Below, in pieces: positions 13,572 to 33,675 of a DNA stretch of 64,000 bases. The position numbers and the translations under genes are program-made. This DNA comes from Deltaproteobacteria bacterium (GTDB lineage Bacteria > Desulfobacterota > Syntrophia > Syntrophales > UBA2210). Every line of letters begins with the position of its first letter. Position 1 is the first letter of the stretch. The notes beneath the pieces were generated by a model that saw nothing but the letters and a program-made list of their open reading frames with translations, was not told the DNA's origin and did not search any database. The stretch spans positions 17,788-81,787 of the forward strand of contig JAFGBH010000096.1 in assembly GCA_016933215.1 (NCBI GenBank), written 5' to 3'.

Positions 13572-13647
13572 GGGTCGGTAGCTCAGTCGGTAGAGCACGG
13601 GACTGAAAATCCCGGTGTCGGCAGTTCGATTCTGCCCTGACCCACCA
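13572..13647 (+). tRNA. tRNA-Phe (anticodon GAA), CCA encoded
   Basis: 76 nt, folded by hand. The acceptor stem is GGGTCGG/CTGACCC, the D arm GCTC-AGTCGGTA-GAGC, and the anticodon stem CGGGA/TCCCG with loop CTGAAAA. The T arm is GGCAG-TTCGATT-CTGCC, and it ends in ACCA. Confidence 0.95.
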
Positions 13648-13686
13648 TTGGTATTAAGGGGTTAGTCACTTTGGCTGGCCCCTTTT
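13600..13686 (+). repeat. attL: direct repeat formed by the 3' 48 nt of tRNA-Phe plus downstream hairpin region
   Basis: 51 bp are identical to 33589-33639. The match then continues imperfectly (AAGGGGTTAG(T/C)CACTTTGGCTGGCCCCTTTT) to about 13686 / 33675. Confidence 0.85.
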
Positions 13687-14762
13687 TTCGTCCCAAAATC
13701 TGCAAATGTAACTGTTTTGTAACCACGCTGCTCATTTAGGTATATTTCCTGTTTCTGGGCTGCCAATTTCAGGTCATCGGCACTCACAATATTGTATCGC
13801 TCGAATACTGATCTTGTTTTATGTCCTGAAATCATCATAGCAACCCGCTCGGGAACACCAGCTCTCACCATATTTCTAACCGCTGTACGTCTCAAATCAT
13901 GGAATAGCTTTTTGCCTATTTTTGCTCCCTTGCATGCAGTATTCCACGACTTTCTTAACTGCTTTATCCTGTCGCTCCCGTTTTTGTTCGTAAACACATA
14001 AGGCGTCAGTTTACCGGCTTTTTTTCTTGCCTCCCATTGCGCATTAATAACCGTTTTCAACTCGTCATCAAGATAAACGATACGACCCTCGTTGTTCTTG
14101 GTCTCCCCAGCCTCAAGCCTCACAATGCCATTTTTAAGGTCAACGTGGCTCCACGTTAGCTTACTGATCTCTGACTTACGCCACCCTGACTTATAGGCAA
14201 AAGTCACAAAACCCCTTAAGTGTTCCGGTAATTTGCCCCTCAAGGCTAAAAACTCCTCATGCTCGAAGAAACCCTTCCTGACATTATTCTCTTTCAGCAT
14301 AGAGATGTAAGGAACCCTATCGACCTTCGGCGGAGTCTGCTGCGCACCGAGATTCAACATTCGCTTGAGTGCAGAAAGTTCACGATTGATTGTCGCGTTC
14401 TTCGCCTTTTCCATTTGCCTCTTCTCAACATATTTATTGATCAGGGGAGTCGTTATATCGACCACTTTCATACCTTCAAAGTAGTCTTTCAGGCGATCCA
14501 CGCTCCGCTCGGCACGGTCAAGAGACTTCTTACCGTTAATCCTATAGTCAGCAAGAAACTCTTCGGCCAACTCATCGAACCTCACTTTCTCAAAGTGCAC
14601 ACCCGGTATTTTACCCTGCGTAATTTCCCCTTCACGCTTTTTTAGTAAACCTCTCGCTACTCCCACTTTATCGCTATGGGTAGATTCGACATATGGCTTC
14701 CCGTTGCGATAGTACTTAATTGTGTAATTCTTTCCTCGTCTATAGATACATCCCATTTTCAC
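13662..14762 (-). CDS. int: Tyrosine-type site-specific recombinase (phage integrase family)
   Basis: 366 aa. The C-terminal catalytic signature is LFHDLRRTAV ... ISGHKTRSVFERYNIV (R..HxxR..Y). It is adjacent to the tRNA, and its last codons lie inside the att repeat. The start is GTG 14762 or ATG 14756. Confidence 0.9.
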   Translation of the reverse strand: MKMGCIYRRGKNYTIKYYRNGKPYVESTHSDKVGVARGLLKKREGEITQGKIPGVHFEKVRFDELAEEFLADYRINGKKSLDRAERSVDRLKDYFEGMKVVDITTPLINKYVEKRQMEKAKNATINRELSALKRMLNLGAQQTPPKVDRVPYISMLKENNVRKGFFEHEEFLALRGKLPEHLRGFVTFAYKSGWRKSEISKLTWSHVDLKNGIVRLEAGETKNNEGRIVYLDDELKTVINAQWEARKKAGKLTPYVFTNKNGSDRIKQLRKSWNTACKGAKIGKKLFHDLRRTAVRNMVRAGVPERVAMMISGHKTRSVFERYNIVSADDLKLAAQKQEIYLNEQRGYKTVTFADFGTKKGASQSD

Positions 14763-14968
14763 GCTCCTTTCCGGGATGGATTCGGCTTGACAAGTTGAAT
14801 GTCGTAGCCGAGGTAATCGGCAATCTGCTCAAGCTTTCTCAGGGAGATATTCACCTTCCCACCGAGGAACTTCGAGAGTTGACTCTCGTCGATCCCCAGA
14901 TCCTTGCTGAGCCGGTACGCCGTTACCTTTTCCCTTTTCAGGATTTCTCTTAGACGATTCGCCACCAT
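14759..14968 (-). CDS. XRE-family helix-turn-helix transcriptional regulator
   Basis: 69 aa with the HTH_3-like segment VTAYRLSKDLGIDESQLSKFLGGKVNISLRKLEQIADYLG. A GTGA overlap joins it to int. Confidence 0.75.
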   Translation of the reverse strand: MVANRLREILKREKVTAYRLSKDLGIDESQLSKFLGGKVNISLRKLEQIADYLGYDIQLVKPNPSRKGA

Positions 14969-15006
14969 ATGCTTCTTCTACCATATACTGGTATATATGT
15001 CAAGTA

Positions 15007-15252
15007 CTATCGGTATATCGTTTTGTTTGTCTCGATGAATTCATCGAGATCATTCACATCAAAATACAATTTGCGATCGGCCTCTCGTTTCACGACAGGT
15101 ATGTCGCCCGACCATGCAAGCTCACGCATTCCATACTCTCCCCGACCGAGGTACAGTGCTGCCTCTTTCAGGGTATACAGGCGTTTCCTCACTGGATTCG
15201 TAATCCCGTGTGCCTTCTTTGTTCCTTTGTCAGTCAGCGTTTGCGTCGCCAT
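15007..15252 (-). CDS. Excisionase/AlpA-like (HTH_17) DNA-binding protein
   Basis: 81 aa. The segment LYTLKEAALYLGRGEYGMRELAWSGDIPVVK resembles the excisionase-family MerR-like HTH. It sits upstream of the XRE gene and int. Confidence 0.65.
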   Translation of the reverse strand: MATQTLTDKGTKKAHGITNPVRKRLYTLKEAALYLGRGEYGMRELAWSGDIPVVKREADRKLYFDVNDLDEFIETNKTIYR

Positions 15253-15608
15253 GTAACCGTCCGGTAACCGTTTATTGAACTATTTAAACCTATCAATGGT
15301 TATCATTTCTCGGTGTTTCTTCCGCATTGAGAGAGAGGGGGGGGTACCGGCCATTTTCGGCTGCGGTGCGTGAAAATAACATCCCCCTATAAATATCCGA
15401 AAAACAAAAGGGACTGAATCTCAATTCAAATTGCCTCTTTCTCATCGTCTTTACGATCCTACGCCCAAATAAGTGTCGCGCAGATTGCCAAGATTGTTGG
15501 TCGCAATGAAAGAACGTATAGAAATGATTAAAATACTGCCAACTTTCATTACCCCTAAAGAAAACAAAAAAGACCAGTCGAACTCTTTGACGTAATGTTT
15601 CCCTCATC

Positions 15609-15980
15609 TCAGGCTTCATTACTTATCCGCACATTCAAAAGAGGATTTCTTGCCCGAGACTCAATGATATTTGCTTCGGTCTGATTGACCCTTTTTTTAA
15701 TCGCTCTGGCCTTTTTTAATCTTTTCCCTACCTCTACCCTCTCTTCGGGAGTTAGTTTCCTCCTCTTTGTAATTTTACATATGCCAAAGGGCATATAGGG
15801 GTATAGGGGACACGATTCGACCTGACAATCTACCTTGCCGTCGGTGTACCCGTTCATGCACTCGTAGCACTTTGCCAGCATCGCTTCTTTTCGGGTTAAT
15901 CTTTCGCCACTTAAATATTTCAACAATTCCCTCTTGCCGCTTGCCGTAATCCCATATTTTTCAATGTCGTTATGTTCCAT
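15609..15980 (-). CDS. Cys-rich (zinc-ribbon-like) small basic protein of mobile-element origin, function unknown
   Basis: The ATG at 15980 gives MEHNDIEKYG... (123 aa). It has the Cys cluster CYECMNGYTDGKVDCQVESCPLYPY. The longest ORF (to 16142) would overlap the rep gene. Confidence 0.5.
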   Translation of the reverse strand: MEHNDIEKYGITASGKRELLKYLSGERLTRKEAMLAKCYECMNGYTDGKVDCQVESCPLYPYMPFGICKITKRRKLTPEERVEVGKRLKKARAIKKRVNQTEANIIESRARNPLLNVRISNEA

Positions 15981-16713
15981 TTTTCTTCTCCTTTGGTTTA
16001 TATAAATCCGCCTCATCGAGATACTGCTGCCAGTGTTGCTTTCTGAAAAGGGTAGCGGGATGAAAAAGTTTGGGGTTTTCGATGAAATAGGGGTCTTCTG
16101 ATTTAAGGGCAATGATTCGGCAACACTGATGTACCGAGCCACCGTCTTTTAAACGGGCGGCGATATTTTCCGATGCGGTGACGGGTTTTAAATCCTTCCG
16201 TTTAGCTACCCATTCCCGGTATTCGTTATATACTTGAAGGACCTCTGCCACCCCATCCTCTAAAAGAACCCTCTCGTCGGCGTGATGCCTTATATATATA
16301 TTCTTTTCTTTCTTTTCTTTTGTGGGTGCCATTTTTGGCAACAGTTCCGTTGCCATTTTTGGCAATAGTCCGTTGCCATTTTTGCCATGTGTCATTTTCG
16401 GCGACAGCTGCCATTTGGTGTAATCTTTTTGAAGGCCATAGGAAATGATGAGGGTGGAGTCATCTTTAATGATAATTCTCCGTTTTGTAAGGTCCTTGAG
16501 GGCGCGTCCAATATGTCTTCTGTCCAATCCCGTTTTCTTTTGGAATGAGCTGATGCTGATTCGATCCGTCTTCTTTTTCCAGCCGTAGGTCTGTCGCAGG
16601 ATCACCCATAAAAGCCGCCACTGATTACCGGATAGTTGTAAGCGATAGAAAGCTTCCCCGATTTCATTTGCTATCTGCATATATCCGTTTTCTAACTGTG
16701 GGGTTCCGGACAT
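15970..16713 (-). CDS. Replication initiator-like protein (phage replication protein O N-terminal winged-helix type)
   Basis: The ATG at 16713 is preceded by GAGGGAG. The N-terminus NGYMQIANEIGEAFYRLQLSGNQWRLLWVILRQTYGWKK is RepO/DnaD-like. The central LPKMAT/LPKMAP repeats are encoded by the iterons. Confidence 0.6.
   Translation of the reverse strand: MSGTPQLENGYMQIANEIGEAFYRLQLSGNQWRLLWVILRQTYGWKKKTDRISISSFQKKTGLDRRHIGRALKDLTKRRIIIKDDSTLIISYGLQKDYTKWQLSPKMTHGKNGNGLLPKMATELLPKMAPTKEKKEKNIYIRHHADERVLLEDGVAEVLQVYNEYREWVAKRKDLKPVTASENIAARLKDGGSVHQCCRIIALKSEDPYFIENPKLFHPATLFRKQHWQQYLDEADLYKPKEKKNGT
16327..16420. repeat. Iteron-like direct repeats (putative origin of replication) inside the RepO-like gene
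   Basis: TGCCATTTTTGGCA occurs at 16327 and 16351 and TGCCATTTTTGCCA at 16374 (spacing 24/23 bp). Degenerate copies are TGTCATTTTCGGCG at 16390 and TGCCATTTGGTG at 16409. Confidence 0.6.
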
Positions 16714-16737
16714 GGTGATCTCCCTCAAAGTCTCAGC

Positions 16738-16929
16738 TCAGTTTTCCGTCTGAATCTTGCGCTGCTCCATGTAATCAATGATATCCTGCCAACAATACCT
16801 TACAGATCGTCCAACCTTGCAATAAGGTATGCCCCGGCCCAAGTGCCGATTGTTGCGAAGCGTGGATAATGCCATACCAGTCAAGCGTGACGTTTCCTTC
16901 TCTGTTAAATATCTGACTTTTGTTTCCAT
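16738..16929 (-). CDS. AlpA/excisionase-family HTH DNA-binding protein
   Basis: 63 aa. The segment YLTEKETSRLTGMALSTLRNNRHLGRGIPYCKVGRSVRY is typical of the HTH_17 family. Confidence 0.65.
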   Translation of the reverse strand: METKVRYLTEKETSRLTGMALSTLRNNRHLGRGIPYCKVGRSVRYCWQDIIDYMEQRKIQTEN

Positions 16930-17138
16930 CGAAGAACTCCTTTCTATATCTCTTTACCCCTATAGTTGGATTTCTCCAATCTCGAAGGCGAATAAGGGGG
17001 ACAAAACAAGACTGATGATTGGTATCTTATTGAATGTGTAAAGCAAAATATTCGAAATAATTATTGCGCACATCTCCAACAGGAGGGTTGGCGATCTTCA
17101 AGTTTTGTAGTTGGAGATTTAAAGTCGGGTGAAAGGGG

Positions 17139-18278
17139 CTAACTTTCGCCTGGGTTCAGATATCCTTTTATGCGGTTTGGACCAAGAAACTCTTTTTTTG
17201 ATGCCACTTCGATAGCAGCTTCTAATTTAGCCATGATCTGTGACAACATATCTTTTGAATTGTTGCCTCCTTGCAACTCTAATGTTTTCTTTTCTTCAGA
17301 TAGCCTTTCAATTTCTGCTATTAGTTCTGCTTTCGGATAATCTGTATAATCAACATCATTGATGCTCGGAGGGGGAACATCGAACTTTGGCCCATACGTA
17401 CCCGGCCGCTCACTATGTATGCGCTGAAATATATGAAAGTTACTTGGCAATTGCGACTTGTAGGTTACGTTTAAAAACTCTACGACTTTCCTGCTGATAT
17501 CGCGAAGAATTTGTTGATGTGCATCGTATTGTTTATTTCTTATTTTTCTGCTTCCGTGGGCTTTGCCAACATAATATAAGTGATCTTCTGATTTCAGAAT
17601 TTGAATGAAAGCGAGCCACGTTTTTGTATCTTCTCTCCGAAATCCTAAATCTTCATAGGAGTAAGTTTTCGGATCTCCGTTGCCAACCCTTACAATGATA
17701 TCAAGACCATTTTTATAAGAAATTGACACTGATTCTATATAGCATTCGGGGTCTGTCTTACCGTAGCTTGCTAACATGTCAGACATCTCTGGACGTTCAG
17801 TATCCGTCTGCTTTTCTAAACTTGAAGCATGCTTTTCTCGCCATTGATCAAGAATCTCTTCGTGCTGATTCTCAAACGCTTCTACATCGTCTGGGTGATA
17901 CAACCATTGAGAAAAATATTGTTCTCGCTCTTCTTGGGTATAAGCACGCGACAGCATGCCGAAATCATATCGGACGCACGCTTCTAATCGCGTGGGATTG
18001 GGTTCGTAAGGAACAAGTTTGTCCTGTCGCGCAAAATCAAAGATCGCCTCCCATCCAACCGACCATCTTTCCATTAACTCAATCCCGGTAATCGGCACGA
18101 ATAGCTCTTTGGGGGGTTCCGTGTCCCGGCGGTGGGGAAGTAGGGGGCCAAGTCCATCTACCGGGTTTAGTGGATCTGGTGCCTTAGTGATTCCCTTTGC
18201 CCTTTCGAGCTTCCTGAGCTCATCCTTCTGGGCTTCAGTGGGTTGGACCTCGTCCTTCTTGTTTTTATCTCCTGTCAT
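17139..18278 (-). CDS. Hypothetical protein (379 aa), no recognisable domain; charged N-terminus, coiled-coil-like C-terminus
   Basis: Long ORF in the co-directional minus-strand island operon. No motif was recognised by eye. Confidence 0.5.
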   Translation of the reverse strand: MTGDKNKKDEVQPTEAQKDELRKLERAKGITKAPDPLNPVDGLGPLLPHRRDTEPPKELFVPITGIELMERWSVGWEAIFDFARQDKLVPYEPNPTRLEACVRYDFGMLSRAYTQEEREQYFSQWLYHPDDVEAFENQHEEILDQWREKHASSLEKQTDTERPEMSDMLASYGKTDPECYIESVSISYKNGLDIIVRVGNGDPKTYSYEDLGFRREDTKTWLAFIQILKSEDHLYYVGKAHGSRKIRNKQYDAHQQILRDISRKVVEFLNVTYKSQLPSNFHIFQRIHSERPGTYGPKFDVPPPSINDVDYTDYPKAELIAEIERLSEEKKTLELQGGNNSKDMLSQIMAKLEAAIEVASKKEFLGPNRIKGYLNPGES

Positions 18279-18480
18279 TTTGCGCCTCCTGAAGCGCCTT
18301 GGCAGTAGATCCGAAGAAAGCGGTCAGGATACTGCTTTGTCGGTCTGCAGAACCTATCCCCGGAAAAATGATTATTTATTTACGTTCCTTTAAATCGACA
18401 TTGCGGAAATCTTAGTACAGGGTTCAGTCAAGGAGATTTTAGGTTGTAGGTATTCCAGATTAACTCTATTGGAAGGTCTG

Positions 18481-18789
18481 TTAGAAATTTAAAACGAATT
18501 CGGTCTCAGCAGCGTATCTGCGCCGGTCTTTCCAGACAGATTCTACACCATATCTTTCAACCAACTCCAGGGTGCTTTCACGTAACACCCGTTTGCTGCC
18601 TTCCGGTATGTCCAAGCAATCGAGGTATTCTCCTAAGAGTAACAGAGGATCTGACTCCCAATTATCCGGGACCGGAGCATTCTCGTCATGAACGAGACCA
18701 TCTCGATCATAAGCATCAAGAACACTCAAAACGCCCGAATAGTTGCTTAAGGCGTTTTGGAAATGCCTCTTTTTCTCCTTGTTATCCAT
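18481..18789 (-). CDS. Hypothetical acidic protein (about 102 aa)
   Basis: The ATG at 18789 (MDNKEKKRHF...) is preceded by a G-rich SD (AAGGGGGGGGGA). The longest ORF extends to 18924 through the G9 tract. The protein is rich in Asp/Glu. Confidence 0.45.
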   Translation of the reverse strand: MDNKEKKRHFQNALSNYSGVLSVLDAYDRDGLVHDENAPVPDNWESDPLLLLGEYLDCLDIPEGSKRVLRESTLELVERYGVESVWKDRRRYAAETEFVLNF

Positions 18790-19025
18790 TCCCCCCCCCT
18801 TAATCTTGTGGTCATAATTAATGATACGCTCCTGAAAATTTTTTTCAAGTAAGATTATATGTGTCCAACCTTTCATAGAATAACGCCTGCTAATCGTTGG
18901 GATTATATAAATGTGATTATCCAAGATTATAAATCGAAATGTTTATAGATTTAACGACTTGCTCACAAGTGAGGGCCGCTACGCGGCCCGCAGCTGGTGA
19001 AGCAAAAGGTTAGGCAGTTACTATG

Positions 19026-19553
19026 TTAGCCCATATGCTGAGCTGTTTTCGCAACTGGTTCTTCTCCCAGCAGGACCATTCCGAATTTTTCGTACCTGGT
19101 ATTCGTCTTTGGATCCAAGTCGTGCCATCTCGCCAAGAACTCGCGCTCGCGTAACCATGTCCGCCGGAAAGAGGACGGATCTTCAAATAGCAGTACGCCC
19201 TTTGCATGACCAATCAGAATCGCATAGTGCCCGTCATCGTAATCTTCGCGCCAATCTTGCAGCGTCATATACCTGTCTGCCCATGCCTGCAGCAGCACGA
19301 TCACAGGATACTCCTTATCTATAAAGTCCTTTATATCAGCCAATTGCCAGTTGTCGCCTGCCTTGACCTTGAATCCATAATCCTGCGCCACCTTAATCAT
19401 CCCTGAGACTGGCGTTCCTTCCTCTCCGGTTCCGAGCGCCTCCATCAGCTCATCTTCTCGAACATCCACGCCGTAATAAGCCATTACGGTCTGCAGGGCT
19501 TTGGCGCCACAATCAAAATCGAATGTTTGCCTGCCGATGTGCAGTTCAATCAC
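19026..19553 (-). CDS. Peptidase C39-like (papain-fold cysteine peptidase) domain protein
   Basis: 175 aa. The candidate catalytic Cys is in FDFDCGAKALQTVMAYYG and the His in DDGHYAILIGH, matching C39-like domain architecture. There is no signal peptide. Confidence 0.6.
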   Translation of the reverse strand: MIELHIGRQTFDFDCGAKALQTVMAYYGVDVREDELMEALGTGEEGTPVSGMIKVAQDYGFKVKAGDNWQLADIKDFIDKEYPVIVLLQAWADRYMTLQDWREDYDDGHYAILIGHAKGVLLFEDPSSFRRTWLREREFLARWHDLDPKTNTRYEKFGMVLLGEEPVAKTAQHMG

Positions 19554-20335
19554 TTGCTGCTCCTTTCTCCACGTACGATCCGAAGCGTCTCCTGGATCGA
19601 TTCCGCGAATGCTCTTCTAAGTCTGTTGATTGCTAAAACGTTTGGAGTCCGATCGATGTTCTTGTAGAGCCTTTCATTCGTCTCCTGAATAAGCGCTGGA
19701 GCCTTTAGCCCTACAGGCTTCATTTCGTTTACTGAATGGGCGGCACACACGTGCCCATACACAGTATAGTATTCCGAGCTATTCACTGTCACTTTTACGT
19801 CAGGCAGACGCTTTCGAAGTTCGCTGGCATACGTTTCAACATAGATCTCCGGGCAGTAATAAACCCGCTCCTTATCCAATCGTGAATGTTGAAAGTTCAT
19901 CAGGTCTATCTGATTGTCAGCAACACCTCGTGCTGTGACTGTTGAGTGACCGTCAAGAAGAAAGGTCGCTCCTTCCGCGATGCTGCTCTCTATCAAAGAG
20001 TGGAACGGCTTGAGATATCTTGACGACAGTGACGCGCGCAACTCCATTGATGGTTCATGTCCTGCAATATACACGGGTCTTCCGCGTACATCTTGCAACG
20101 GAACGCTGTCATCCAGCATTTCGGGATGCCGATTCCCTTCGATGACAATGCTGCAATACTGAAACACGAGATGCCTATTGCTCAGGATGTCGCGAAAATC
20201 GTACAGCCAGTTTGTATACCAATCAACATTCTGTACGAGAACGAAGAAATCCTCAGACAGTGATTCGAGAGGTATTTCATTCGGAATGACTACACCGCTG
20301 TGGGGAATAACTACGAGCAGATCCTGCGCTCCCAT
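19550..20335 (-). CDS. N-formylglutamate amidohydrolase (FGase) family / Zn-exopeptidase-fold amidohydrolase
   Basis: 261 aa. The blocks VVIPHSGVVIP, DWYTNWLY, IVIEGNRHP and FLLDGHST follow the FGase pattern (HxG..P, D..T, NR, D.HS). It overlaps the C39-like gene by 4 bp. Confidence 0.6.
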   Translation of the reverse strand: MGAQDLLVVIPHSGVVIPNEIPLESLSEDFFVLVQNVDWYTNWLYDFRDILSNRHLVFQYCSIVIEGNRHPEMLDDSVPLQDVRGRPVYIAGHEPSMELRASLSSRYLKPFHSLIESSIAEGATFLLDGHSTVTARGVADNQIDLMNFQHSRLDKERVYYCPEIYVETYASELRKRLPDVKVTVNSSEYYTVYGHVCAAHSVNEMKPVGLKAPALIQETNERLYKNIDRTPNVLAINRLRRAFAESIQETLRIVRGERSSK

Positions 20336-20452
20336 ACAAGCCTCCTGACTATTTCTGGAAGAAAAACCTACGCCCGCAAAGCAATAGAATCGATCAGCAG
20401 GAAAAAACCACTACTCAACAGAACCACTGTGGAAAAGGGATTGTTCCTGTCT

Positions 20453-20677
20453 TTATGACGCGCCCATAATGGCATAGGCGGGGTGCATTCCCCTTCTTTC
20501 CGGCCCGTCATATTCAGAAACGCCCATTCCCCTGATATGGTCAACACCGACGGTGACCCATCGCTTCTCAGAAGGACGGTAAAACCGCTTGATTTTCTTT
20601 TGAGCGAGCTGCTGATTGAGTATTCCACCAAGAAGATAGTCATACCCGTCATTGTTGTACTGTACTCGTATCAACAC
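20453..20677 (-). CDS. Small conserved hypothetical protein (74 aa; resembles the family I recall as GSU3473-like)
   Basis: MLIRVQYNNDGYDYL...KIKRFYRPSEKRWVTVGVDHIRG...YDGPERR. It is the first gene of the minus-strand cargo operon. The family assignment is from memory only. Confidence 0.5.
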   Translation of the reverse strand: MLIRVQYNNDGYDYLLGGILNQQLAQKKIKRFYRPSEKRWVTVGVDHIRGMGVSEYDGPERRGMHPAYAIMGAS

Positions 20678-20881
20678 TTTTCTCTCCCCCTCACTAAGAG
20701 ATGAATGTCTTATGAATACGTAATTCCATATAAACTATAAGAGGATGGCACGGAACTGTCAATTGGAAACTATAGTCAGAAAACATCAATGATTGGCTTC
20801 CGTCCTGAAAATGAGCGCTGCATTTAGCGAACGAGCAGATGAGAATCATTGACAGTTTTCACATAATGGTTTAATCATAAT

Positions 20882-20984
20882 GTTAGAGACACTGTTACCT
20901 CCTTTTGTAACAGCTGTCGATTCTACTATAATTCGTTTTACGGTCCCGGGCTATACAGCGTCGTAGCTCGGGACCACTTTTTTT
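20882..20984 (+). ncRNA. Putative small RNA, copy 1 (promoter-hairpin-terminator unit)
   Basis: Upstream are TTGACA (20849-20854) and an extended -10 TGgTTTAAT (20867-20875). Hairpin CTGTTAC/GTAACAG (20892-20913) has CCTCCTTTT in its loop. The terminator is GGTCCCGGGCT/AGCTCGGGACC (20942-20975) plus T7. A paralogue lies at 33219-33323. Confidence 0.4.
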
Positions 20985-21018
20985 ACACGACGTCTATATG
21001 GATACGGGTGGCATATAG

Positions 21019-21102
21019 ATGGATTTAATCATTGCATTCATCGGTCTGGTCGTAATCATATTTTTAGTATGCTGGACAATCAGTGAGATCTTCTTTAAAT
21101 AG
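21019..21102 (+). CDS. Candidate 27-aa hydrophobic peptide (MDLIIAFIGLVVIIFLVCWTISEIFFK)
   Basis: An ATG with GGGTGG 7 nt upstream. It is a single predicted TM helix with a charged tail, too short for the ORF track, and has no supporting homology. Confidence 0.25.
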   Translation: MDLIIAFIGLVVIIFLVCWTISEIFFK

Positions 21103-21340
21103 GGCTACATCTGAAAGTTCAAGATCGATTGTTCATCCATTAATGATGGCTTAGTTTTATACATTGCTTTTTCTGTACAATATTCCTTGTCATCACTGAG
21201 TAAAATTTTAGAAGGATGAATTCATCCTGGTTGCTCATTCCAGGGTGCTTGACATTTACGTTCCGATATAACAGATTATTTTCTGCTGTTGTAGCTTCTT
21301 GCTTGAAGCAATTTATTTTAAAACAGACTGAGGCAGATGT

Positions 21341-22279
21341 ATGAAAACAATTGTTACGCTGACGATGAACCCCGCCATTGATAAAAGCTCGAAGGTTGAC
21401 CATGTCATCGCGGAACGCAAACTGTACTGCCAAACTCCCTGTTTTGAACCGGGAGGCGGGGGAATCAATGTCACGAGAGCGATCAAAAAACTGGGGGGAG
21501 AATCTATCGCATTCTATCTCTCGGGAGGCCCGACAGGCGAAATGCTCCAATACCTGTTCAAGCAGGAGAACCTTGATCATCGCCCGATCCTGTTTGACGG
21601 ATGGACAAGGGAGAATCTGATTGTACTGGAAGAGTCCACGGGTCAGCAATACCGCTTTGGAATGCCCGGCCCACCCATATCCGAGCCGGAGTGGCAGCAA
21701 TGCCTGCACGAACTGTCTGCCTTTGGTCACAGGATTGACTTCATCGTCGCCAGCGGCAGCCTTCCGCAAGGAGTTCCGGACTCTTTTTACGCCAGCGTTG
21801 CCCGTATCGGAAAAAGCAGGGGTGCCCGGGTTATCGTGGATGCCTCGGGAGAAGCGCTTCGTCTCGCGCTGAACGAAGGTGTCTATCTGATCAAACCCAA
21901 TATCCGCGAGTTCAGAGAACTCAGTGGCGCCGGATTGGAGGACAATCTGGAGATAGAACATATGGCAATGGATATTGCCCGCAAGGGGAAATGCGGCGTG
22001 GTGGTTGTTTCACTCGGAGCCGCCGGTGTCCTGATGGCATCTGACGATGGCCATGAATATATCCAGCCGCCGCCCGTCCCGATCATAAGCAAGGTAGGCG
22101 CCGGAGACAGCATGGTGGCCGGTATTGTGCTGAGTTTGGCACGCGGCAATCCTCCGCGTGATGCCGTCAGATTCGGTGTGGCAGCTGGCACCGCGGCCGT
22201 CATGACATCCGGAACGGAACTGTGTCGGAGAGAAGACACCGAACGTCTGTACAGACAATTGACCCTGAAATCAGCATGA
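21341..22279 (+). CDS. PfkB-family carbohydrate kinase (1-phosphofructokinase / 6-phosphofructokinase II / tagatose-6-P kinase subfamily)
   Basis: 312 aa. It has MKTIVTLTMNPAIDK, GGGGINV and the C-terminal pfkB signature KVGAGDSMVAG. Confidence 0.85.
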   Translation: MKTIVTLTMNPAIDKSSKVDHVIAERKLYCQTPCFEPGGGGINVTRAIKKLGGESIAFYLSGGPTGEMLQYLFKQENLDHRPILFDGWTRENLIVLEESTGQQYRFGMPGPPISEPEWQQCLHELSAFGHRIDFIVASGSLPQGVPDSFYASVARIGKSRGARVIVDASGEALRLALNEGVYLIKPNIREFRELSGAGLEDNLEIEHMAMDIARKGKCGVVVVSLGAAGVLMASDDGHEYIQPPPVPIISKVGAGDSMVAGIVLSLARGNPPRDAVRFGVAAGTAAVMTSGTELCRREDTERLYRQLTLKSA

Positions 22280-22909
22280 GAGCGGAATGTCCTTCAGGAT
22301 TTGCTTACTGAGACAGGCGAAGTAACTTTTGTGAAAATTGCAGAGCTCAAAGTAAAATCACCTTATGAAAGATACGCAACCCAAGAAAAAGAAAAGAGTC
22401 AGGTATCCGATACCGGAAGAGGGGCCGTACCTTCCGAAGGAAAAGTACAGACAATCTTCCCCGAAATCATATCCGGTATTACAGGAGCGTATCGAACTGG
22501 TACGCTGACAGTCACATTGCTATCGCAAATTATAATCCTAAGTATGGTTTTTTCATCTGTTGAATTAGATGAGATAGCTACAATCAAATCTGACACTTGA
22601 CATATAGAGGTAGTAGCCATAGCCACCCTTCCGCCTGCTAATCTTTGGTATCGATTGAGCGCAAAAAGCCACCATTGCAACTACAAATCTTCAATGTTAA
22701 TCAGTGAAAAATACAAGTCCCAGCAATGATATTTTTGTAATATAATAAAATATTTGACTAATATCTTAATGAAGGATATTCTTCATCTTGGTTTTATTGA
22801 GAATTTGTTCTGTTTTAGCGTTATCGAGTTGACCTGAATTTTCAAAGTGAGGGAATTATGGTCAGACTATTGAAGCCCTGTTTCTCAAAAAGAGAGGCAG
22901 GGTTTTGTT

Positions 22910-23461
22910 TTGGATAGGTACAAAGGGCACTGCTCCACATTGTTTAAAAGCGTTTTTCGTTATGTTGCTCTCGATGTTGAGACAACGGGTCTGTCTCCCC
23001 GAAAAGGTCATAGGATAATCGAAGTAGGGGCAGTCGCCATTGAATATGGGAAACCAGTAGGAGAATTGTCGAGTCTTGTAAATTCCGGTAGAAAAATACC
23101 ATGTCAGACTGCGCGAATACACGGAATAACCGATGCAATGCTCACTAATCAGCCTTTGCCCGATGAAATAATGCCACGATTATGGGATTTCCTGAAGGAC
23201 AGTATTGTAATCGCCCATAATGCAAGGTTCGATGTTGAGTTTCTCAGACATGAATTTGGACTAATTTCATTACAGTTGGAGAATAAGGCTGTCTGTACAC
23301 TGGAAATGAGCAGAAAGCTCTATCCAGGGTTGCCCAATCACAGGCTCAATACCGTTTACAGATATTTGTTTGGAGAAAAGCCCGCGAATGTTCAAAGGCA
23401 TCGGGCGCTCGATGATGCGAAGATGACTGCCGCAATATGGCTTGAAATGGTTAAGCGATGA
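22910..23461 (+). CDS. DnaQ-like DEDDh 3'-5' exonuclease (DNA polymerase III epsilon-like), stand-alone, coupled to cas3
   Basis: 183 aa with a TTG start. The three motifs are ExoI ALDVETTGL, ExoII IAHNARFDVEFL and ExoIII HRALDDAKMTA. Its stop TGA overlaps the cas3 ATG (ATGA at 23458-23461). Confidence 0.8.
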   Translation: MDRYKGHCSTLFKSVFRYVALDVETTGLSPRKGHRIIEVGAVAIEYGKPVGELSSLVNSGRKIPCQTARIHGITDAMLTNQPLPDEIMPRLWDFLKDSIVIAHNARFDVEFLRHEFGLISLQLENKAVCTLEMSRKLYPGLPNHRLNTVYRYLFGEKPANVQRHRALDDAKMTAAIWLEMVKR

Positions 23462-26238: not shown

Positions 26239-26239
26239 A

Positions 26240-27811
26240 ATGGAATTTAATCTTATTGAGGAAAGATGGATTCCCATATGCAGGAAGAGCGGCAGAGAAG
26301 AACAAATAGCCCCGTGGGAGATTACCGATTCCTATGAATCGGATCCCGTTATATCGCTGAGTGTGCCCAGGCCCGATTTTAACGGTGCCCTCATTCAGTT
26401 TCTCATAGGACTGGTGCAGACGACGACGGCTCCGAAGGACGAGGATGAATGGGAAGATTGTTTCGACACGCCACCTTCACCCAATAAGCTAAAAGTAGCC
26501 TTCGAGACAGTTAAACACGCCTTTAATCTTGGGGGAAACGGTGCGCGTTTTATGCAGGACTTTGATGCAATAGAAACCACTCCGCAAAACATATCCGGCC
26601 TCCTTATAGATTCTCCCGGTGAAAATACTCTGAAAAACAACGCGGATCACTTTATAAAACGAGGCAACATAAGTTGTATGTGTCCATCCTGTGCGGCGAC
26701 AGCACTTTTCGCACTCCAGACAAATGCGCCTGCGGGAGGTGTAGGCTATCGGGTATCTCTTAGGGGAGGCGGGCCACTTACGACACTTGTTGTTGGTGGT
26801 AGTGAGGAGGCAAACAGCCTATGGCAAACTGTATGGCTGAACATTGTTGAGAAAAATGAATTTCTCAGGATCTGTTGCGATTCCAAAAAGAAAGATGATC
26901 CCGATATGTTTCCCTGGATGGCGAAAACACGGACCAGCGAAAAACATACCGGTCATGACACGACACCGGAAGACATTAACCCTGCACAGATGTTCTGGGG
27001 AATGCCACGGCGTATACGTTTGAACATCGACGATGCAAACCAAGGGATGTGTGACATATGTGGCAGTTCCTCCAAAGAGATCGTTGATACATATATAACA
27101 AAGAACCATGGGGTAAATTATGTCGGGCCGTTTTTACATCCTCTTTCCCCGCACAGCAGGCAGGATGGTGTTCCATTCCCTGTTCATGCCCAGCCAGGCG
27201 GCGTTACCTACCGTCACTGGTTGGGCCTTGTGCAGGCAGACAAAAAAAATAATCGTGAGCCGGCACTTGTGGTCAATAAATTTGTCTCTCGTCAAAGGAG
27301 TGACTGGCCCTTGCGTCTCTGGGCCTTTGGATACGATATGGATAACATGAAGGCACGTTGCTGGTACGAATCAACCATGCCGCTCCTGCCTCTCGAAAAG
27401 GAACTACGTGAAGGATATGAGGACAATATTGCCAGCATGGTCATGGCCGCTTCGGAAGCTGTCAAGAACCTCAGGAGCTGTGTAAAGGCAGCGTGGTTTA
27501 AGAGGACTAAGGATAAAAAAGGGGACATGAATTTTCTCAGTAATTGCTTCTGGCAGAAGACGGAAGATGATTTCTATACTGTGTTAAGCAAGCTTAAAGC
27601 CGCTCTCGAAGAAGGAGACGGTAGTGATTTGATTCGCCAAGATTGGCATAAATGCATCTGCCGAACTGCTCTGTCTCTATTCGACGAAGCTGCCTGGAAC
27701 GGTCCCATAGAAGATGCCGATCCGAAACGGGTTGTCCTCGCACGACAGGAATTAGAGAGAAAAAATAATAGTAAAAAAATTAGGGAAGAATTGCTTGATC
27801 TGCCAGAATAA
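26240..27811 (+). CDS. cas8e: Cascade large subunit Cse1/CasA (Cas8e)
   Basis: 523 aa. The N-terminus MEFNLIEERWIPI is like E. coli CasA (NLLIDNWIPV). It sits right after cas3. Confidence 0.9.
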   Translation: MEFNLIEERWIPICRKSGREEQIAPWEITDSYESDPVISLSVPRPDFNGALIQFLIGLVQTTTAPKDEDEWEDCFDTPPSPNKLKVAFETVKHAFNLGGNGARFMQDFDAIETTPQNISGLLIDSPGENTLKNNADHFIKRGNISCMCPSCAATALFALQTNAPAGGVGYRVSLRGGGPLTTLVVGGSEEANSLWQTVWLNIVEKNEFLRICCDSKKKDDPDMFPWMAKTRTSEKHTGHDTTPEDINPAQMFWGMPRRIRLNIDDANQGMCDICGSSSKEIVDTYITKNHGVNYVGPFLHPLSPHSRQDGVPFPVHAQPGGVTYRHWLGLVQADKKNNREPALVVNKFVSRQRSDWPLRLWAFGYDMDNMKARCWYESTMPLLPLEKELREGYEDNIASMVMAASEAVKNLRSCVKAAWFKRTKDKKGDMNFLSNCFWQKTEDDFYTVLSKLKAALEEGDGSDLIRQDWHKCICRTALSLFDEAAWNGPIEDADPKRVVLARQELERKNNSKKIREELLDLPE

Positions 27812-27865
27812 TCGTAACAAGGACTGTTTTTTTAAAACTCTTTTATAACGAAAGGAGGTGTTTTT

Positions 27866-28369
27866 ATGAATGAGGGAAAGTATCTCAGATTTTCGAAGGA
27901 TTCGCCGGAGAGCAAGGCGTTGCTCGAGTGGTGGCGAGGGTTGGAAAATAATCGGGGTGATCGTGCCGCCCTCCGACGCTGTCGCAGCCTTACAGAAGTG
28001 GTGTTTGTTCCTTCTTATCACCGTTTGAGGCAGGAATTACTTCATTTCGGAAATGTAGACAGCGAGGGACTTGCAATAACCGTGGCCCTTGCTGCCCAAG
28101 TGAAGGCAGACAACTCCGAGCATACCCTTGCCCAGCAAATGGCTCTTCCCAAAGCGGGCGGCTCTGCCAAGGTAAGCGGTTTACGTTTCCGGCGACTGCT
28201 CAAGATCCAGCGCAGGGAAGATATGTATCACGCTATGATTAGAATCATGGCACTTTTGGGGAGTTCGCTTAACCTTATAAGCTTGGCCGAAAGCGTTTAC
28301 TGGTGGAATGATCTTACGAGAAAAAAGTGGGCATTCGAGTATTACACAAACGCTCCATCAGAAAAATGA
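27866..28369 (+). CDS. cse2: Cascade small subunit Cse2/CasB (Cas11e)
   Basis: 167 aa. The segment LLEWWRGLENNRGDRAALRRCRSLTEV is Cse2-like. It is in the canonical position. Confidence 0.88.
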   Translation: MNEGKYLRFSKDSPESKALLEWWRGLENNRGDRAALRRCRSLTEVVFVPSYHRLRQELLHFGNVDSEGLAITVALAAQVKADNSEHTLAQQMALPKAGGSAKVSGLRFRRLLKIQRREDMYHAMIRIMALLGSSLNLISLAESVYWWNDLTRKKWAFEYYTNAPSEK

Positions 28370-28392
28370 TCCCCTTAGAAAGGAGAAAAAAC

Positions 28393-29463
28393 ATGAGTAG
28401 ATTTATTCAATTGCACCTGCTTACTTCGTATCCGCCGTCAAATCTTAACAGGGATGACCTGGGACGTCCCAAGACCGCAGTGATGGGAGGCAAAACGCGC
28501 CTCCGTATTTCATCGCAAAGTCTTAAGCGTGCGTGGCGCAAGTCGGATGTCTTTGAAGAAGCGCTGGAATATCATATGGGTACCAGAACAAAGCGTATGG
28601 GATTAAAGATATATAAGGCTTTTCTGGAGGAAAAAGTTCCAGACAAGAAGGCAAAGGACTGGGCAAAACAAATCGCAGGACAATTCGGAAAATGCAAGAA
28701 ACAGACGGATTCAAACCCGCTGGAAGACTTGGAGATAGAACAGTTAGCTCATTTCAGTCCTGAAGAAGAGAACGCTATAAATGTTCTGATCGGCAAACTG
28801 GCGCTCGGCAGCGAAGGTCCGGATGAAAATGACCTCAAACTTTTGACAAAACAGCAAAGCGCCGTCGATATTTCTATGTTTGGAAGAATGCTTGCGGACA
28901 GCCCGGCTTATAACATTGAGGCGGCTGTTCAGGTTGCTCACGCGATAACTGTCCATGAAGTCGCGGTTGAAGACGATTATTTCACCGCTGTTGATGATCT
29001 GAACGAAGGCGAGGAGGATATGGGTGCCGGACATATCGGTGAGACCGAGTTCGCTGCCGGTGTGTATTATCTGTATGTGTGTATAAATAAAGAACTCCTG
29101 GTGAAAAATCTTAATGGTAATAAAGAGCTTGCCGACAAAGCCGTTGCCGCTCTTGTTGAAGCAGCCTCAAAAGTAGCGCCGACAGGCAAACAGAATAGTT
29201 TTGCCTCCCGCGCATATGCCTCCTACATTATGGCTGAAAAAGGTGATCAACAACCACGTTCGCTCTCCGTGGCCTACTTGAAGCCGGTTCGCGGAGATAA
29301 CGGGAGCGGTATTATGGCCGTTGCAATAAGAGAACTGGAAGAAAATCGAAGCAGGATGGAGAAAGTATATGGTCCGTGCGCCGATGAGTGTAAAAGCATG
29401 AACGCGGAGACAGGTGCGGGTGAGGGAAGCCTGAACGAGATAATCAACTTTATAAAGGAGTAA
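28393..29463 (+). CDS. cas7: Cascade backbone subunit Cas7e (CasC/Cse4)
   Basis: The ATG at 28393 is preceded by AGGAG. MSRFIQLHLLTSYPPSNLNRDDLGRPK...RISSQSLKRAWR closely parallels E. coli CasC. Confidence 0.93.
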   Translation: MSRFIQLHLLTSYPPSNLNRDDLGRPKTAVMGGKTRLRISSQSLKRAWRKSDVFEEALEYHMGTRTKRMGLKIYKAFLEEKVPDKKAKDWAKQIAGQFGKCKKQTDSNPLEDLEIEQLAHFSPEEENAINVLIGKLALGSEGPDENDLKLLTKQQSAVDISMFGRMLADSPAYNIEAAVQVAHAITVHEVAVEDDYFTAVDDLNEGEEDMGAGHIGETEFAAGVYYLYVCINKELLVKNLNGNKELADKAVAALVEAASKVAPTGKQNSFASRAYASYIMAEKGDQQPRSLSVAYLKPVRGDNGSGIMAVAIRELEENRSRMEKVYGPCADECKSMNAETGAGEGSLNEIINFIKE

Positions 29464-29469
29464 AAACCC

Positions 29470-30195
29470 ATGCGTGAATATCTTATGTTTAGACTTTACG
29501 GTCCAATGGCCTCTTGGGGCGATATCGCGGTGGGCGAATACCGGCCAAGCTACGCGCATCCGAGCAAATCGGCGGTACTGGGCATACTTGCCGCTGCCGT
29601 GGGCATGCGTCGCGAAGAAGAAGACAAACAGCGACAATTTGCCGATTCATACGGCTTTGCCGTACAGGTTCATGCCGCCGGGACACTCTTGCGCGATTAT
29701 CATACAATACAGGTGCCACCGAAACAAAGGGGTGTAAAGCATGCTACACGTCGTTCGGAACTTTTGGCCCCCCAACTGAACACCATCCTTTCAAGTCGAG
29801 ATTATAGGTGCGATGCCTTTTATACCATTGCAATCTGGGATCTCGTCGAACATCCGCCTTACAGCCTTGGTGAACTTGCCTCATCTCTCGCGTGTCCAGT
29901 ATTCACCATTTACCTCGGGCGTAAATCATGTCCGCCGTCACTCTCCATGCAAGCCCGCACTATAAGAGCGGAAAATCTAAAACAGGCCTTTTTGAATGTT
30001 AACTTCTCCGATAAGGATATACCGTCTGGTTTGCCAAAGAGCGGGCATATTGCGACCTACTGGGAAGGTAGCGATAGCGGTTTTGAAAGCGAACATGTCA
30101 TTATTCGTCGCGATAATCCTACAAGCCGCCGTCGGTGGCAGTTCGCGGATCGTGAAGAACGGTATGCGGGTGTTGCATCGGTGAAGGAGGGATAG
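29470..30195 (+). CDS. cas5: Cascade subunit Cas5e (CasD)
   Basis: 241 aa. MREYLMFRLYGPMASWGDIAVGEYRPS...SKSAVLGILAAAVG parallels E. coli CasD. Confidence 0.93.
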   Translation: MREYLMFRLYGPMASWGDIAVGEYRPSYAHPSKSAVLGILAAAVGMRREEEDKQRQFADSYGFAVQVHAAGTLLRDYHTIQVPPKQRGVKHATRRSELLAPQLNTILSSRDYRCDAFYTIAIWDLVEHPPYSLGELASSLACPVFTIYLGRKSCPPSLSMQARTIRAENLKQAFLNVNFSDKDIPSGLPKSGHIATYWEGSDSGFESEHVIIRRDNPTSRRRWQFADREERYAGVASVKEG

Positions 30196-30199
30196 GAAT

Positions 30200-30883
30200 A
30201 TGTATATGAGCAGGATTAAATTAAAGCGGGATGCGCCAAGTGTGAAGGAACTTGTGAAATTGCTGAGCGGCGATGGATATCAGGCACATCGCCTCATATG
30301 GAACCTTTATGCGGACACCAAGGAGAGAAAAAGGGATTTTCTTTACAGACAAGAGGGAGACGGTATTTGGCCCTTTTTCTATGCGGTATCGGAACGTTTC
30401 CCCATAGACAAAACCGGTACGTGGCAGATTGATTCTAAGAGCTACTCTCCGAAGTTATCAAAAGGGCAGCCACTATCCTTCGTCATTCGTGTTAATCCGA
30501 TTCGAGCAAAAAGAGATGAGCAAAACAAACTGCACAGACATGATATCGTAATGGATGCTAAAACCCATGCAAAGCAACAAGGAAACAGATTCGGCGGAGA
30601 TAAATCGCTGGCTGATCTGATTCAGGAAGAAGGCGCAAAATGGCTTGACGCGCGGTCGGAAAGATATGGATTTTCCATAGATCACAGCCATATTCGCGCA
30701 GACGGATACCGGCAACACGTTGTATATAAAAGAAAAGCCACATCTCCGATCCGCCTCAGCTCGCTGGATATTGGCGGAGTCCTTACCGTCATCGAACCGG
30801 ACCTCTTTGTAAAAACACTGCATACGGGCATCGGCCCAGCAAAGGGGTTTGGCTGCGGACTGATGCTGGTAAAAAGGATTTAA
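30200..30883 (+). CDS. cas6e: CRISPR RNA endoribonuclease Cas6e (CasE)
   Basis: 227 aa. The C-terminus GIGPAKGFGCGLMLV matches the CasE signature GIGPAKSMGCGLL. Confidence 0.93.
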   Translation: MYMSRIKLKRDAPSVKELVKLLSGDGYQAHRLIWNLYADTKERKRDFLYRQEGDGIWPFFYAVSERFPIDKTGTWQIDSKSYSPKLSKGQPLSFVIRVNPIRAKRDEQNKLHRHDIVMDAKTHAKQQGNRFGGDKSLADLIQEEGAKWLDARSERYGFSIDHSHIRADGYRQHVVYKRKATSPIRLSSLDIGGVLTVIEPDLFVKTLHTGIGPAKGFGCGLMLVKRI

Positions 30884-30885
30884 TC

Positions 30886-32107
<1,222 letters not shown>

Positions 32108-32167
32108 AAAGTTGGTAGAAAGTATCGATCTTTGAAAACTTAATATTGCCGAATATATACGAGAAGT
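32108..32167 (+). promoter_or_regulatory. CRISPR leader (60-bp AT-rich spacer between cas2 stop and first repeat)
   Basis: The position and AT-richness are as in E. coli-type I-E loci. No motif could be verified. Confidence 0.55.
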
Positions 32168-32989
32168 ATGTTCCCCGCATACGCGGGGATGAACCGGTAT
32201 CCATCAGCGGCATTGGTATCTATAACAAATGTTCCCCGCATACGCGGGGATGAACCGAACCGAGAACCGACATAACCGTAACGTGGGAAATGTTCCCCGC
32301 ATACGCGGGGATGAACCGGCGATACTGGATGGCAGAAAGACCGTCACCCGATGTTCCCCGCATACGCGGGGATGAACCGATACACCAATTAAATAAGCCT
32401 TATTATAACTAATGTTCCCCGCATACGCGGGGATGAACCGCATTATTTTGTTATTAACCTCCAAAAAAGGGGATGTTCCCCGCATACGCGGGGATGAACC
32501 GTCCTGTAATATGTTGCTGTCTTTATAGAGGTCATGTTCCCCGCATACGCGGGGATGAACCGTAGCTCCCGCAAGTCTATCCTGGGCTATAGTAATGTTC
32601 CCCGCATACGCGGGGATGAACCGCTATTGGAATAGTTCGCCTTTTTATAGTTCATATGTTCCCCGCATACGCGGGGATGAACCGACATTTGATCTTGTCC
32701 TTCGGCTCGTACTCATATGTTCCCCGCATACGCGGGGATGAACCGCCTTTTAGCGCGTCCTTCAGGTGACGGTGAAAATGTTCCCCGCATACGCGGGGAT
32801 GAACCGTTCCCGAATTTCGTCTACTAAGTCAATCGGATATGTTCCCCGCATACGCGGGGATGAACCGGGAAAATACAATGTCTTAACTACTCTGAAGGCA
32901 TGTTCCCCGCATACGCGGGGATGAACCGCTACGGTAGACGAGTCGCCTGTGTCAACGGTAATGTTCCCCGCATACGCGGGGATGAACCG
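32168..32989 (+). CRISPR. Type I-E CRISPR array, 14 repeats / 13 spacers
   Basis: The 29-nt repeat ATGTTCCCCGCATACGCGGGGATGAACCG recurs at an exact 61-nt period (32168, 32229 ... 32961). All 14 copies are identical, and the spacers are all 32 nt. The repeat has the I-E stem CCCCGC/GCGGGG. Confidence 0.97.
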
Positions 32990-33184
32990 CCGGTCGTATA
33001 TCCTATATGCAACGTTGGCGGAGACTCTTGGCGATGAAAACTCGGTGGATGCAATATTAATATGACGGGCCTGGTATGATTTCTGTTATTGATTGCCACC
33101 TACAATCAATAAACGATTATTACTTCCAAGATTCATTTATTACAGGAAGAACTTGTCCTCTGTCGAATTATCAGGAGAGGTTTA

Positions 33185-33212
33185 TTGACACTCGTCACCA
33201 TGATGTTATAAT
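33185..33212 (+). promoter_or_regulatory. Near-consensus sigma70 promoter (TTGACA-N16-TGtTATAAT) driving sRNA-like copy 2
   Basis: TTGACA is at 33185-33190, the extended -10 TGT at 33204-33206 and TATAAT at 33207-33212. Confidence 0.5.
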
Positions 33213-33218
33213 TGCGAA

Positions 33219-33323
33219 GAATTGGGACCATGTCCCTCCTTTTGTATGCATCTCATGCTAATCTACAGTTATTCGCTTCACGGTCCCGGGCTATACAGCG
33301 TCGTAGCTCGGGACCACTTTTTT
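33219..33323 (+). ncRNA. Putative small RNA, copy 2
   Basis: Hairpin GGGAC-cat-GTCCC (33224-33236) is followed by the CCTCCTTTTGTA block (33235-33246). The terminator GGTCCCGGGCT/AGCTCGGGACC (33282-33315) plus T6 is identical to copy 1. Confidence 0.4.
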
Positions 33324-33588
33324 CAAGCTTGCATATTCAGAGAGAATAGGCGTTGCAAACTTTCAGAAAGAAGCTTTTATTAGGTAACTCATTTTCAGAA
33401 AGATATTTTTTCGTGACAAAGAATATACAGGCAAGATAAGGGGAACTTCCGGGTTTAGAGTGTAACTAAAATGTAACTGTCAAAACCTAAAATAACCTCA
33501 CAAAACCAAAGATGATTAAAATTGGCTTTTGTAAGTAGTTGATATGCAAATAATTAAAATTGGTAGCGAATCGTCTGATTTTCTTTTA

Positions 33589-33675
33589 GGACTGAAAATC
33601 CCGGTGTCGGCAGTTCGATTCTGCCCTGACCCACCATTGATATGAAGGGGTTAGCCACTTTGGCTGGCCCCTTTT
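33589..33675 (+). repeat. attR: duplicated 3' fragment of tRNA-Phe (not a functional tRNA) plus downstream hairpin region
   Basis: It is identical to 13600-13650 over 51 bp and then imperfect. It lacks the 5' acceptor, D arm and 5' anticodon-stem strand. Confidence 0.85.

Follow-up and report, generated by a model that had tools for sequence, protein, structure and literature searches.

A 20-kb island in the tRNA-Phe gene of a Syntrophales bacterium carries a complete type I-E CRISPR-Cas system

The window considered here is a stretch of 64,000 nucleotides from a Deltaproteobacteria bacterium of the order Syntrophales (GenBank assembly GCA_016933215.1, contig JAFGBH010000096.1). All coordinates are positions in this window, and numbers preceded by L are labels of the relative contigs and loci compared with it. 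[quoted passage not shown] This segment is an insertion into tRNA-Phe that is bounded by a repeat and whose recombination, replication and CRISPR-Cas genes are intact. An earlier note on the same DNA, made from its letters without database searches, had placed an integrative element between 13.6 and 33.6 kb. The genes listed there are present, and open reading frames (ORFs) and Pfam matches confirm that the XRE, Xis-like, RepO-like and AlpA-like genes all lie on the minus strand; the CRISPR-Cas locus at 22.9-33.0 kb, half of the island, had been overlooked.

Table 1. Features of the tRNA-Phe locus and of the island, in window coordinates.
Feature	Position	Strand	Evidence or remark
tRNA-Phe(GAA), intact	13572-13647	+	ARAGORN; Rfam tRNA 70.8 bits; same sequence at empty sites
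attL	13600-13686	+	51-nt exact core 13600-13650 plus imperfect extension through terminator hairpin
Tyrosine integrase, 364 aa	13662-14756 (ORF to 14762)	-	PF00589 85.7 bits; phrog_1 integrase
Candidate arm-type doublet TGTAAC-N5-TGTAAC, P' arm	13707-13723	+	Inside int 3' end
XRE/Cro-type HTH regulator	14759-14968	-	PF13443, PF01381; PHROG repressor families
HTH_17 protein, candidate excisionase (recombination directionality factor)	15007-15252	-	PF12728; phrog_66 excisionase/regulator
Two small genes, function not assigned, 108 aa and about 123 aa	15293-15980	-	ORFs, gene calls
Lambda O-like replication initiator (RepO)	15970-16713	-	PF04492 78 bits; TIGR01610; PHROG O-like families
Candidate replication origin: 2.5 x 24-bp iterons inside repO, then A/T-rich tract	16327-16384		TRF
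AlpA-like HTH_17 regulator	16738-16929	-	PF12728
379-aa backbone protein	17139-18278	-	11 homologues only
int-alpA RNA motif RF02996, sub-threshold, full-length	18297-18364	-	29.3 bits (gathering score 35.8); 5' leader of 379-aa gene
Small hypothetical gene, C39 peptidase, FGase-like amidohydrolase, small hypothetical gene	18481-20652	-	
Stand-alone C39 cysteine peptidase, 175 aa	19026-19553	-	Overlaps amidohydrolase gene
FGase-like amidohydrolase, 261 aa	19550-20335	-	
PfkB-family hexose kinase and small hypothetical gene	21341-22600	+	PF00294 173 bits; TIGR03168 301 bits
CRISPR-associated DEDDh (DnaQ-like) exonuclease	22910-23461	+	PF00929; PADLOC DEDDh CAS-associated; overlaps cas3 start
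Type I-E cas operon, whole	23458-32107	+	Pfam; NCBIfam
cas3	23458-26238	+	
cas8e/cse1	26240-27811	+	
cas11/cse2	27866-28369	+	
cas7	28327-29463	+	
cas5	29470-30195	+	
cas6e	30200-30883	+	
cas1e	30886-31806	+	NCBIfam Cas1e 386 bits
cas2e	31784-32107	+	NCBIfam Cas2e 122 bits
Leader (60 nt) and CRISPR array	32108-32989	+	14 repeats of 29 nt, 13 spacers of 32 nt
Candidate small RNA, ~100 nt	33185-33325	+	Promoter and intrinsic terminator; between CRISPR array and attR
Candidate arm-type doublet TGTAAC-N5-TGTAAC, P arm	33461-33477	+	~110 bp inside attR
attR	33589-33675	+	51-nt exact core 33589-33639 plus displaced host tRNA 3' half and terminator hairpin

The cores of the two attachment (att) sites are identical at 51 of 51 nucleotides, and direct comparison finds no extension of the identity to the left. 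The core consists of positions 29-76 of tRNA-Phe, starting in the anticodon stem, and of 3 further nucleotides. Similarity then continues through a terminator-like hairpin followed by a T-run, giving an extended repeat in which 84 of 87 positions match (mismatches at 13651, 13655 and 13666). These counts bear out the 51-bp perfect and about 87-bp imperfect repeat at tRNA-Phe described in the earlier note, and exact alignment shows the two copies to be collinear. With three mismatches allowed, the window contains exactly two occurrences of each of two 24-mers from the repeat, while shuffled sequences predict 0.00; the repeat is therefore not due to chance, and a third or internal att copy is absent from the window even at this tolerance. 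The integrase gene does end inside the repeat, as had been proposed, its stop at 13662 lying in the imperfect part and the perfect 51 nt not being reached.

tRNA-Phe is host DNA in its 5' part, and its remainder, from about the anticodon loop, comes from the element. The attR hairpin is closer to the attL copy of the element than to the attB hairpins of the nearest relatives. The mimicry of both tRNA and terminator noticed earlier is real and runs through the hairpin. Adaptation of the element to this host lineage, which had been deduced from it, is only one option: the element copy may derive from this lineage, or the repeats may have been homogenised by gene conversion, and the two explanations fit equally well. 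In GCA_016938315.1, a metagenome-assembled genome (L001, position 10604), an A replaces the G of position 13651, the first mismatch after the core, so that the exact repeat is 55 nt long there. This difference may reflect gene conversion between attL and attR or be a plain polymorphism.

The insertion site is empty in six metagenomic contigs of close relatives (L184, L185 and L187-L190), which were reached via homologues (89-97% identical) of the right-flank glycosyltransferase and whose flank DNA is 82-94% identical to that of the window (94% for the right flank of L184). The longer contigs (L185 and L187-L189) display the gene order PrmA-RsmE-RDD-tRNA-Phe, about 250 bp and the glycosyltransferase gene, followed by a methyltransferase gene, a 372-aa gene, a hexapeptide-repeat gene and a radical-SAM gene. 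In L184 and L190, which are short, only tRNA-Phe and the same right flank directly after it are visible. Blastn alignments of the left flank stop at 13687/13688 and those of the right flank start at 33589. The search for empty sites suggested in the earlier note has thus yielded six contigs that join both flanks, with breaks exactly at the repeat. Sequence to the right of the attR hairpin matches attB of L184 in the att alignment while the corresponding sequence at attL does not, in agreement with the expected structures B-core-P' for attL and P-core-B' for attR.

About twenty Syntrophales species share the order PrmA-RsmE-RDD-tRNA-Phe, and an integrase homologue adjoins tRNA-Phe in four other Syntrophales genomes, which makes this site a recurrent target. 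A scan of genome contigs based on RsmE gave no empty site, the relatives found there among species representatives being distant (at most 57% identity, Syntrophaceae best) and not retaining the right flank. The island itself was seen in one population only in a look-up of the 364-aa integrase; a near-identical contig from GCA_016938315.1, assembled independently, covers attL and 17 kb of island sequence, from which the window differs at 3 single nucleotides.

DNA composition changes at the same boundaries. Measured against the flanks, the tetranucleotide distance climbs near 13 kb to a plateau with z = 2.6-5.9 over host windows and falls at about 34 kb, and the correlation with host tetranucleotide usage is 0.54-0.74 between 13 and 34 kb against 0.74-0.95 (mostly at least 0.83) for host windows. 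Between the integrase half and the cas half of the island the correlation is r = 0.80, and that of either half with host segments is 0.56-0.77; among host segments it is 0.91-0.94. The guanine-plus-cytosine (GC) content is 0.467 in the island and 0.489 and 0.505 in its flanks. The region 13-34 kb is foreign and the DNA outside it host-like, the plateau edges coinciding with the repeats.

The empty sites and the foreign composition support the earlier proposal that 13.6-33.6 kb is one horizontally acquired element. The preferred interpretation, which is given a probability of about 0.85, is that positions 13600-33588 (19,989 bp with one core copy counted) form one integrative genomic island that the Syntrophales bacterium acquired horizontally. 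The tyrosine integrase would recombine attP with tRNA-Phe by strand exchange in or beside the anticodon loop. The element would carry a tRNA 3' half and a terminator of its own, and the 3' half of the host gene would end up displaced at attR; tRNA-Phe would be intact at attL because these parts were brought in by the element. The HTH_17 protein encoded beside int would act as excisionase, with the XRE and AlpA-like proteins as regulators, and the excised circle would replicate from the iterons inside the lambda O-like repO gene. About 13 kb of the island are cargo, chiefly the type I-E CRISPR-Cas system with the DEDDh gene and an array of 13 spacers, that would provide immunity against tailed phages. 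The intact state of the recombination parts suggests that the island may still be excisable.

The catalytic residues of the integrase are present in an alignment with XerA (4a8e): the R in SGWRKSE, the motifs HDLRRT and GH, and the Y in FERYNIV. In the 64 kb there are exactly two copies of the doublet TGTAAC-N5-TGTAAC (0.00 expected), in the same orientation and one inside each end of the island, and the 12-mer AAATGTAACTGT is found in the window only at these two sites. The pattern is as expected of arm-type sites bound by an integrase on both arms, P' and P, of a single attP. Its presence at both inner ends connects the DNA next to attR with the integrase encoded 20 kb away. A third copy of the doublet with one mismatch (15252-15268, plus strand) lies directly upstream of the Xis-like gene and may bind the integrase or a regulator. 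A homologue of the Xis-like HTH_17 protein with 53% identity is found in the island L084 described below.

The integrase belongs to a large family (6742 matches at E <= 1e-60, best identity 78%) whose members adjoin tRNA-Leu genes; its relatives in known phages have only 23-29% identity. In L180/L181 a 6.4-kb island between tRNA-derived repeats has the genes HTH_17, helicase, HTH_17 and int. The IMG/VR contig L084 (66-9498) contains a 9.4-kb island between tRNA-Leu(TAA) repeats, with an integrase 63% identical to that of the window. It also carries an HK97 capsid gene, a prohead protease, a portal protein, an HNH protein and TerL, an architecture like that of capsid-forming phage-inducible chromosomal islands (cf-PICIs). 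In Syntrophaceae bacterium UBA4054 (L015, 11334-16960), three more copies of the 3' part (starting in the anticodon loop) follow tRNA-Phe at distances of 1.5-2.1 kb, and a separate hairpin accompanies each; one of the segments carries a gene for a Fic/DOC protein, and no integrase was found at this tandem att region.

The replication module resembles that of phage lambda in having an initiator with the N-terminal O domain (PF04492, TIGR01610) and, inside the initiator gene, iterons with an A/T-rich tract. The iterons are located just after the region coding for that domain, as in ori-lambda. There are 2.5 iterons of 24 bp in the island and four of about 19 bp in lambda, and RepO is just 23-29% identical to the O proteins of phages. 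A P-like helicase loader was not recognised in the island. The two small genes listed between the Xis-like gene and repO (15293-15980) gave no Pfam, PHROG or PADLOC match. Relatives of the 379-aa protein (L171, L174 and others) are encoded beside an HTH_17/HTH_3 gene and a replication gene (Prim-Pol/AAA_25, DUF3987 or RepO), and an integrase accompanies the homologue only in L171-L173. The protein has no match in Pfam, PHROG, PADLOC or NCBIfam, and its AlphaFold2 model (predicted local distance difference test score 69.7) has no Foldseek match at E <= 0.001 in PDB or BFVD.

The type I-E gene set is complete from cas3 to cas2 and forms one operon in which every cas ORF is full length. Cas3 scores above cut-off with the cas3_core and cas3_HD models and reaches 512 bits with the full-length model PRK09694, under its cut-off of 569 bits. 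The CRISPR array, downstream of cas2, has a period of 61 nt and 14 identical repeats out of 14. The cas locus is 81-88% identical in nucleotide sequence to the four closest type I-E loci (L089-L092), and the Cas3 proteins are 83-87% identical. In the metagenomic contigs that hold the module the upstream neighbours are others than in the island, and similarity to the window is limited to 22956-32989. The DEDDh gene is found directly upstream of cas3 in all four, which indicates that it belongs to the type I-E system. DnaQ-like domains act in type I-E adaptation and, by analogy, the DEDDh protein probably trims prespacers. Upstream of the DEDDh gene, L090 has a gene coding for an HTH domain plus an M78 peptidase and a 179-aa ORF without Pfam match, which are not the island backbone.

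Six of the 13 spacers were searched against IMG/VR with every sixth position left free. Spacer 3 (32319-32350) matched positions 9768-9799 (minus strand) of contig IMGVR_UViG_3300047135_000002 (L177), and the other five found no match. All 27 fixed positions of the protospacer match, so that a chance match is very unlikely; the three mismatches, at positions 18, 24 and 30, also coincide with third positions of codons. On its 5' side the protospacer is flanked by ATG. This trinucleotide works as a protospacer-adjacent motif in the type I-E system of E. coli; that of the island system may differ. The target gene belongs to phrog_874 and the contig encodes TerS, TerL, a portal protein, a protease and a major head protein, as expected of a tailed phage. 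At least one spacer thus appears, from this match, to derive from a tailed-phage gene family, and the island would deliver ready-made adaptive immunity. No spacer targets the 64-kb window.

Several observations weigh against the interpretation of the locus as a single island that is still mobile. The attR junction is present in a single metagenomic assembly. No attP junction or excised circle was found, a scan of JGI (Joint Genome Institute) metagenomes with a degenerate att pattern giving 0 matches, and no transfer machinery was identified, the island ORFs having no relaxase, coupling protein or type IV secretion system domain. The functions given to the arm sites and to the origin rest on sequence pattern. 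Relatives of the integrase occupy much smaller islands (6-9 kb), and the cas module is also found without the backbone in L090, where similarity to the island covers only 22956-32989, so that a stepwise assembly is possible. The last two points would be explained by tandem accretion, in which an integrase-RepO element of about 5-7 kb inserted into tRNA-Phe beside a CRISPR-Cas island that was older and had no integrase, with later loss of the att copy between them. The integrase relatives delimit islands of 6.4-9.4 kb, the cas module 22956-32989 stands in a different context in L090, the four tandem att copies of UBA4054 (L015) show that accretion can occur at tRNA-Phe, and GC content is lower at 14-19 kb (0.43-0.45) than in the cas region (0.47-0.52). 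Such a composite history is nonetheless rather improbable, given that there is one integrase only and no third att copy with three mismatches allowed, that the same 12-mer and doublet lie inside both outer ends, and that the two halves are both foreign and closer to each other than to the host. Even with a composite history, matching att sites today enclose the whole 20 kb as one unit.

That the island was acquired by integration and has since lost excision and transfer, to become a fixed remnant, is unlikely but carries some weight: the excised form was not met in the metagenome scan, the island has no transfer genes and it was seen in one population only. Full-length genes for the integrase, the Xis-like protein and RepO, identical 51-nt cores, 14 identical CRISPR repeats and the lack of visible pseudogenes all speak against it. 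There is only a small chance that the island is a PICI-like phage satellite packaged by a helper phage. The 63%-identical integrase of the cf-PICI-like tRNA-Leu island L084 and the satellite-like backbone layout alpA-rep-xis-int point in that direction; Pfam and PHROGs recognise no capsid, terminase or known packaging-redirection gene, and 20 kb exceeds the typical size of satellites. Slim, too, are the prospects of a bolder proposal, a satellite-like, self-replicating element that would use its own type I-E CRISPR-Cas system and DEDDh trimmer against phages or rival mobile elements. It draws on the position of L084 in the integrase clade, on the satellite-like backbone modules and on the one spacer that matches a tailed phage. 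Phage ICP1 uses CRISPR-Cas against the PLE satellite and, if the proposal were true, a CRISPR-armed satellite would be the mirror image of that conflict. A chimeric assembly caused by the 51-87 bp repeat is hardly credible. The source is a metagenome-assembled genome and short-read Logan contigs break at the repeat, yet typical reads exceed the repeat in length, the independent contig of GCA_016938315.1 runs from attL through 17 kb of the island, the arm motifs pair both ends and the compositional boundaries coincide with the repeats.

Known classes of mobile elements were also considered for the island. An integrative and conjugative or integrative and mobilizable element was rejected in view of the absence of relaxase and secretion genes from the island ORFs, and a prophage in view of the absence of virion structural and lysis genes in Pfam and PHROGs searches. 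Membership in the PICIs or cf-PICIs was rejected as no island ORF matches terS, ppi, cpm, capsid, portal or terminase families (Pfam/PHROG). The likeness to these satellites is in the backbone order of alpA-like regulator, replication initiator, xis and int and in the integrase shared with L084; the island differs in its size of 20 kb and in that packaging and capsid genes were not found. We know of no helper phage for it.

Carriage of CRISPR-Cas on mobile islands is a known route for the gain of immunity by gene transfer. Among described elements the nearest is GI-24 of Vibrio cholerae, an island of 17 kb that bears an integrase and a type I-E CRISPR-Cas system and was shown to excise as a unit, and the 29-kb VPI-6 of the same species carries a type I-F system likewise (PMC6360697). 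The single island proposed here is the same kind of element as GI-24: both are non-conjugative and of similar size, have a tyrosine integrase and attL/attR sites, carry a complete type I-E cargo and have their site empty in related strains. GI-24 lies between VC0289 and VC0290 while the present island is in tRNA-Phe of a host from a different phylum (Syntrophales), and the latter has in addition an iteron-bearing, lambda O-like replicon and, at the start of the cas operon, a DEDDh gene.

In islands whose tyrosine integrases target tRNA genes the crossover reportedly takes place in the anticodon loop, as Williams is said to have set out in Nucleic Acids Res in 2002. The island shares with them a repeat that runs from the anticodon stem through the tRNA 3' end, an int gene adjoining the regenerated tRNA gene and relatives of its integrase at tRNA-Leu genes. 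It differs in that the identity block includes the tRNA terminator (84/87) and in that the int stop codon lies inside the hairpin.

The locus provides a clean, fully delimited case of an entire adaptive immune system carried by a small tRNA-integrating island. This cargo spans the adaptation genes, a likely prespacer-trimming exonuclease gene, the leader and a loaded array, and is part of a compact 20-kb unit with int, xis, att sites and a candidate RepO origin. The host is from a syntrophic lineage that is uncultured and slow-growing and in which such transfers are rarely documented, and its sister populations offer the empty site. The island is further evidence for a spread of CRISPR-Cas by integrative elements beyond Vibrio and Pseudomonas; how such islands or type I-E systems work is seen no differently in its light.

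The pair formed by the C39 peptidase and the FGase-like amidohydrolase, together with its neighbours in 18481-20652, has no PADLOC match. The island non-coding stretches show no similarity in any compared locus. One of them holds the candidate small RNA, which has no Rfam match and no similarity in the other compared loci. Its promoter agrees at 12 of 12 positions with the sigma-70 consensus (TTGACA-16-TATAAT) and has the extended -10 TG, and about 70 nt further a 13-bp GC-rich hairpin is followed by a T-run (fold z-score -4.1). Outside the island, a mild tetranucleotide deviation with a local GC content of up to 0.57 is seen at 57000-59300; it coincides with a penicillin-amidase-family gene (56883-59300) and appears ordinary.

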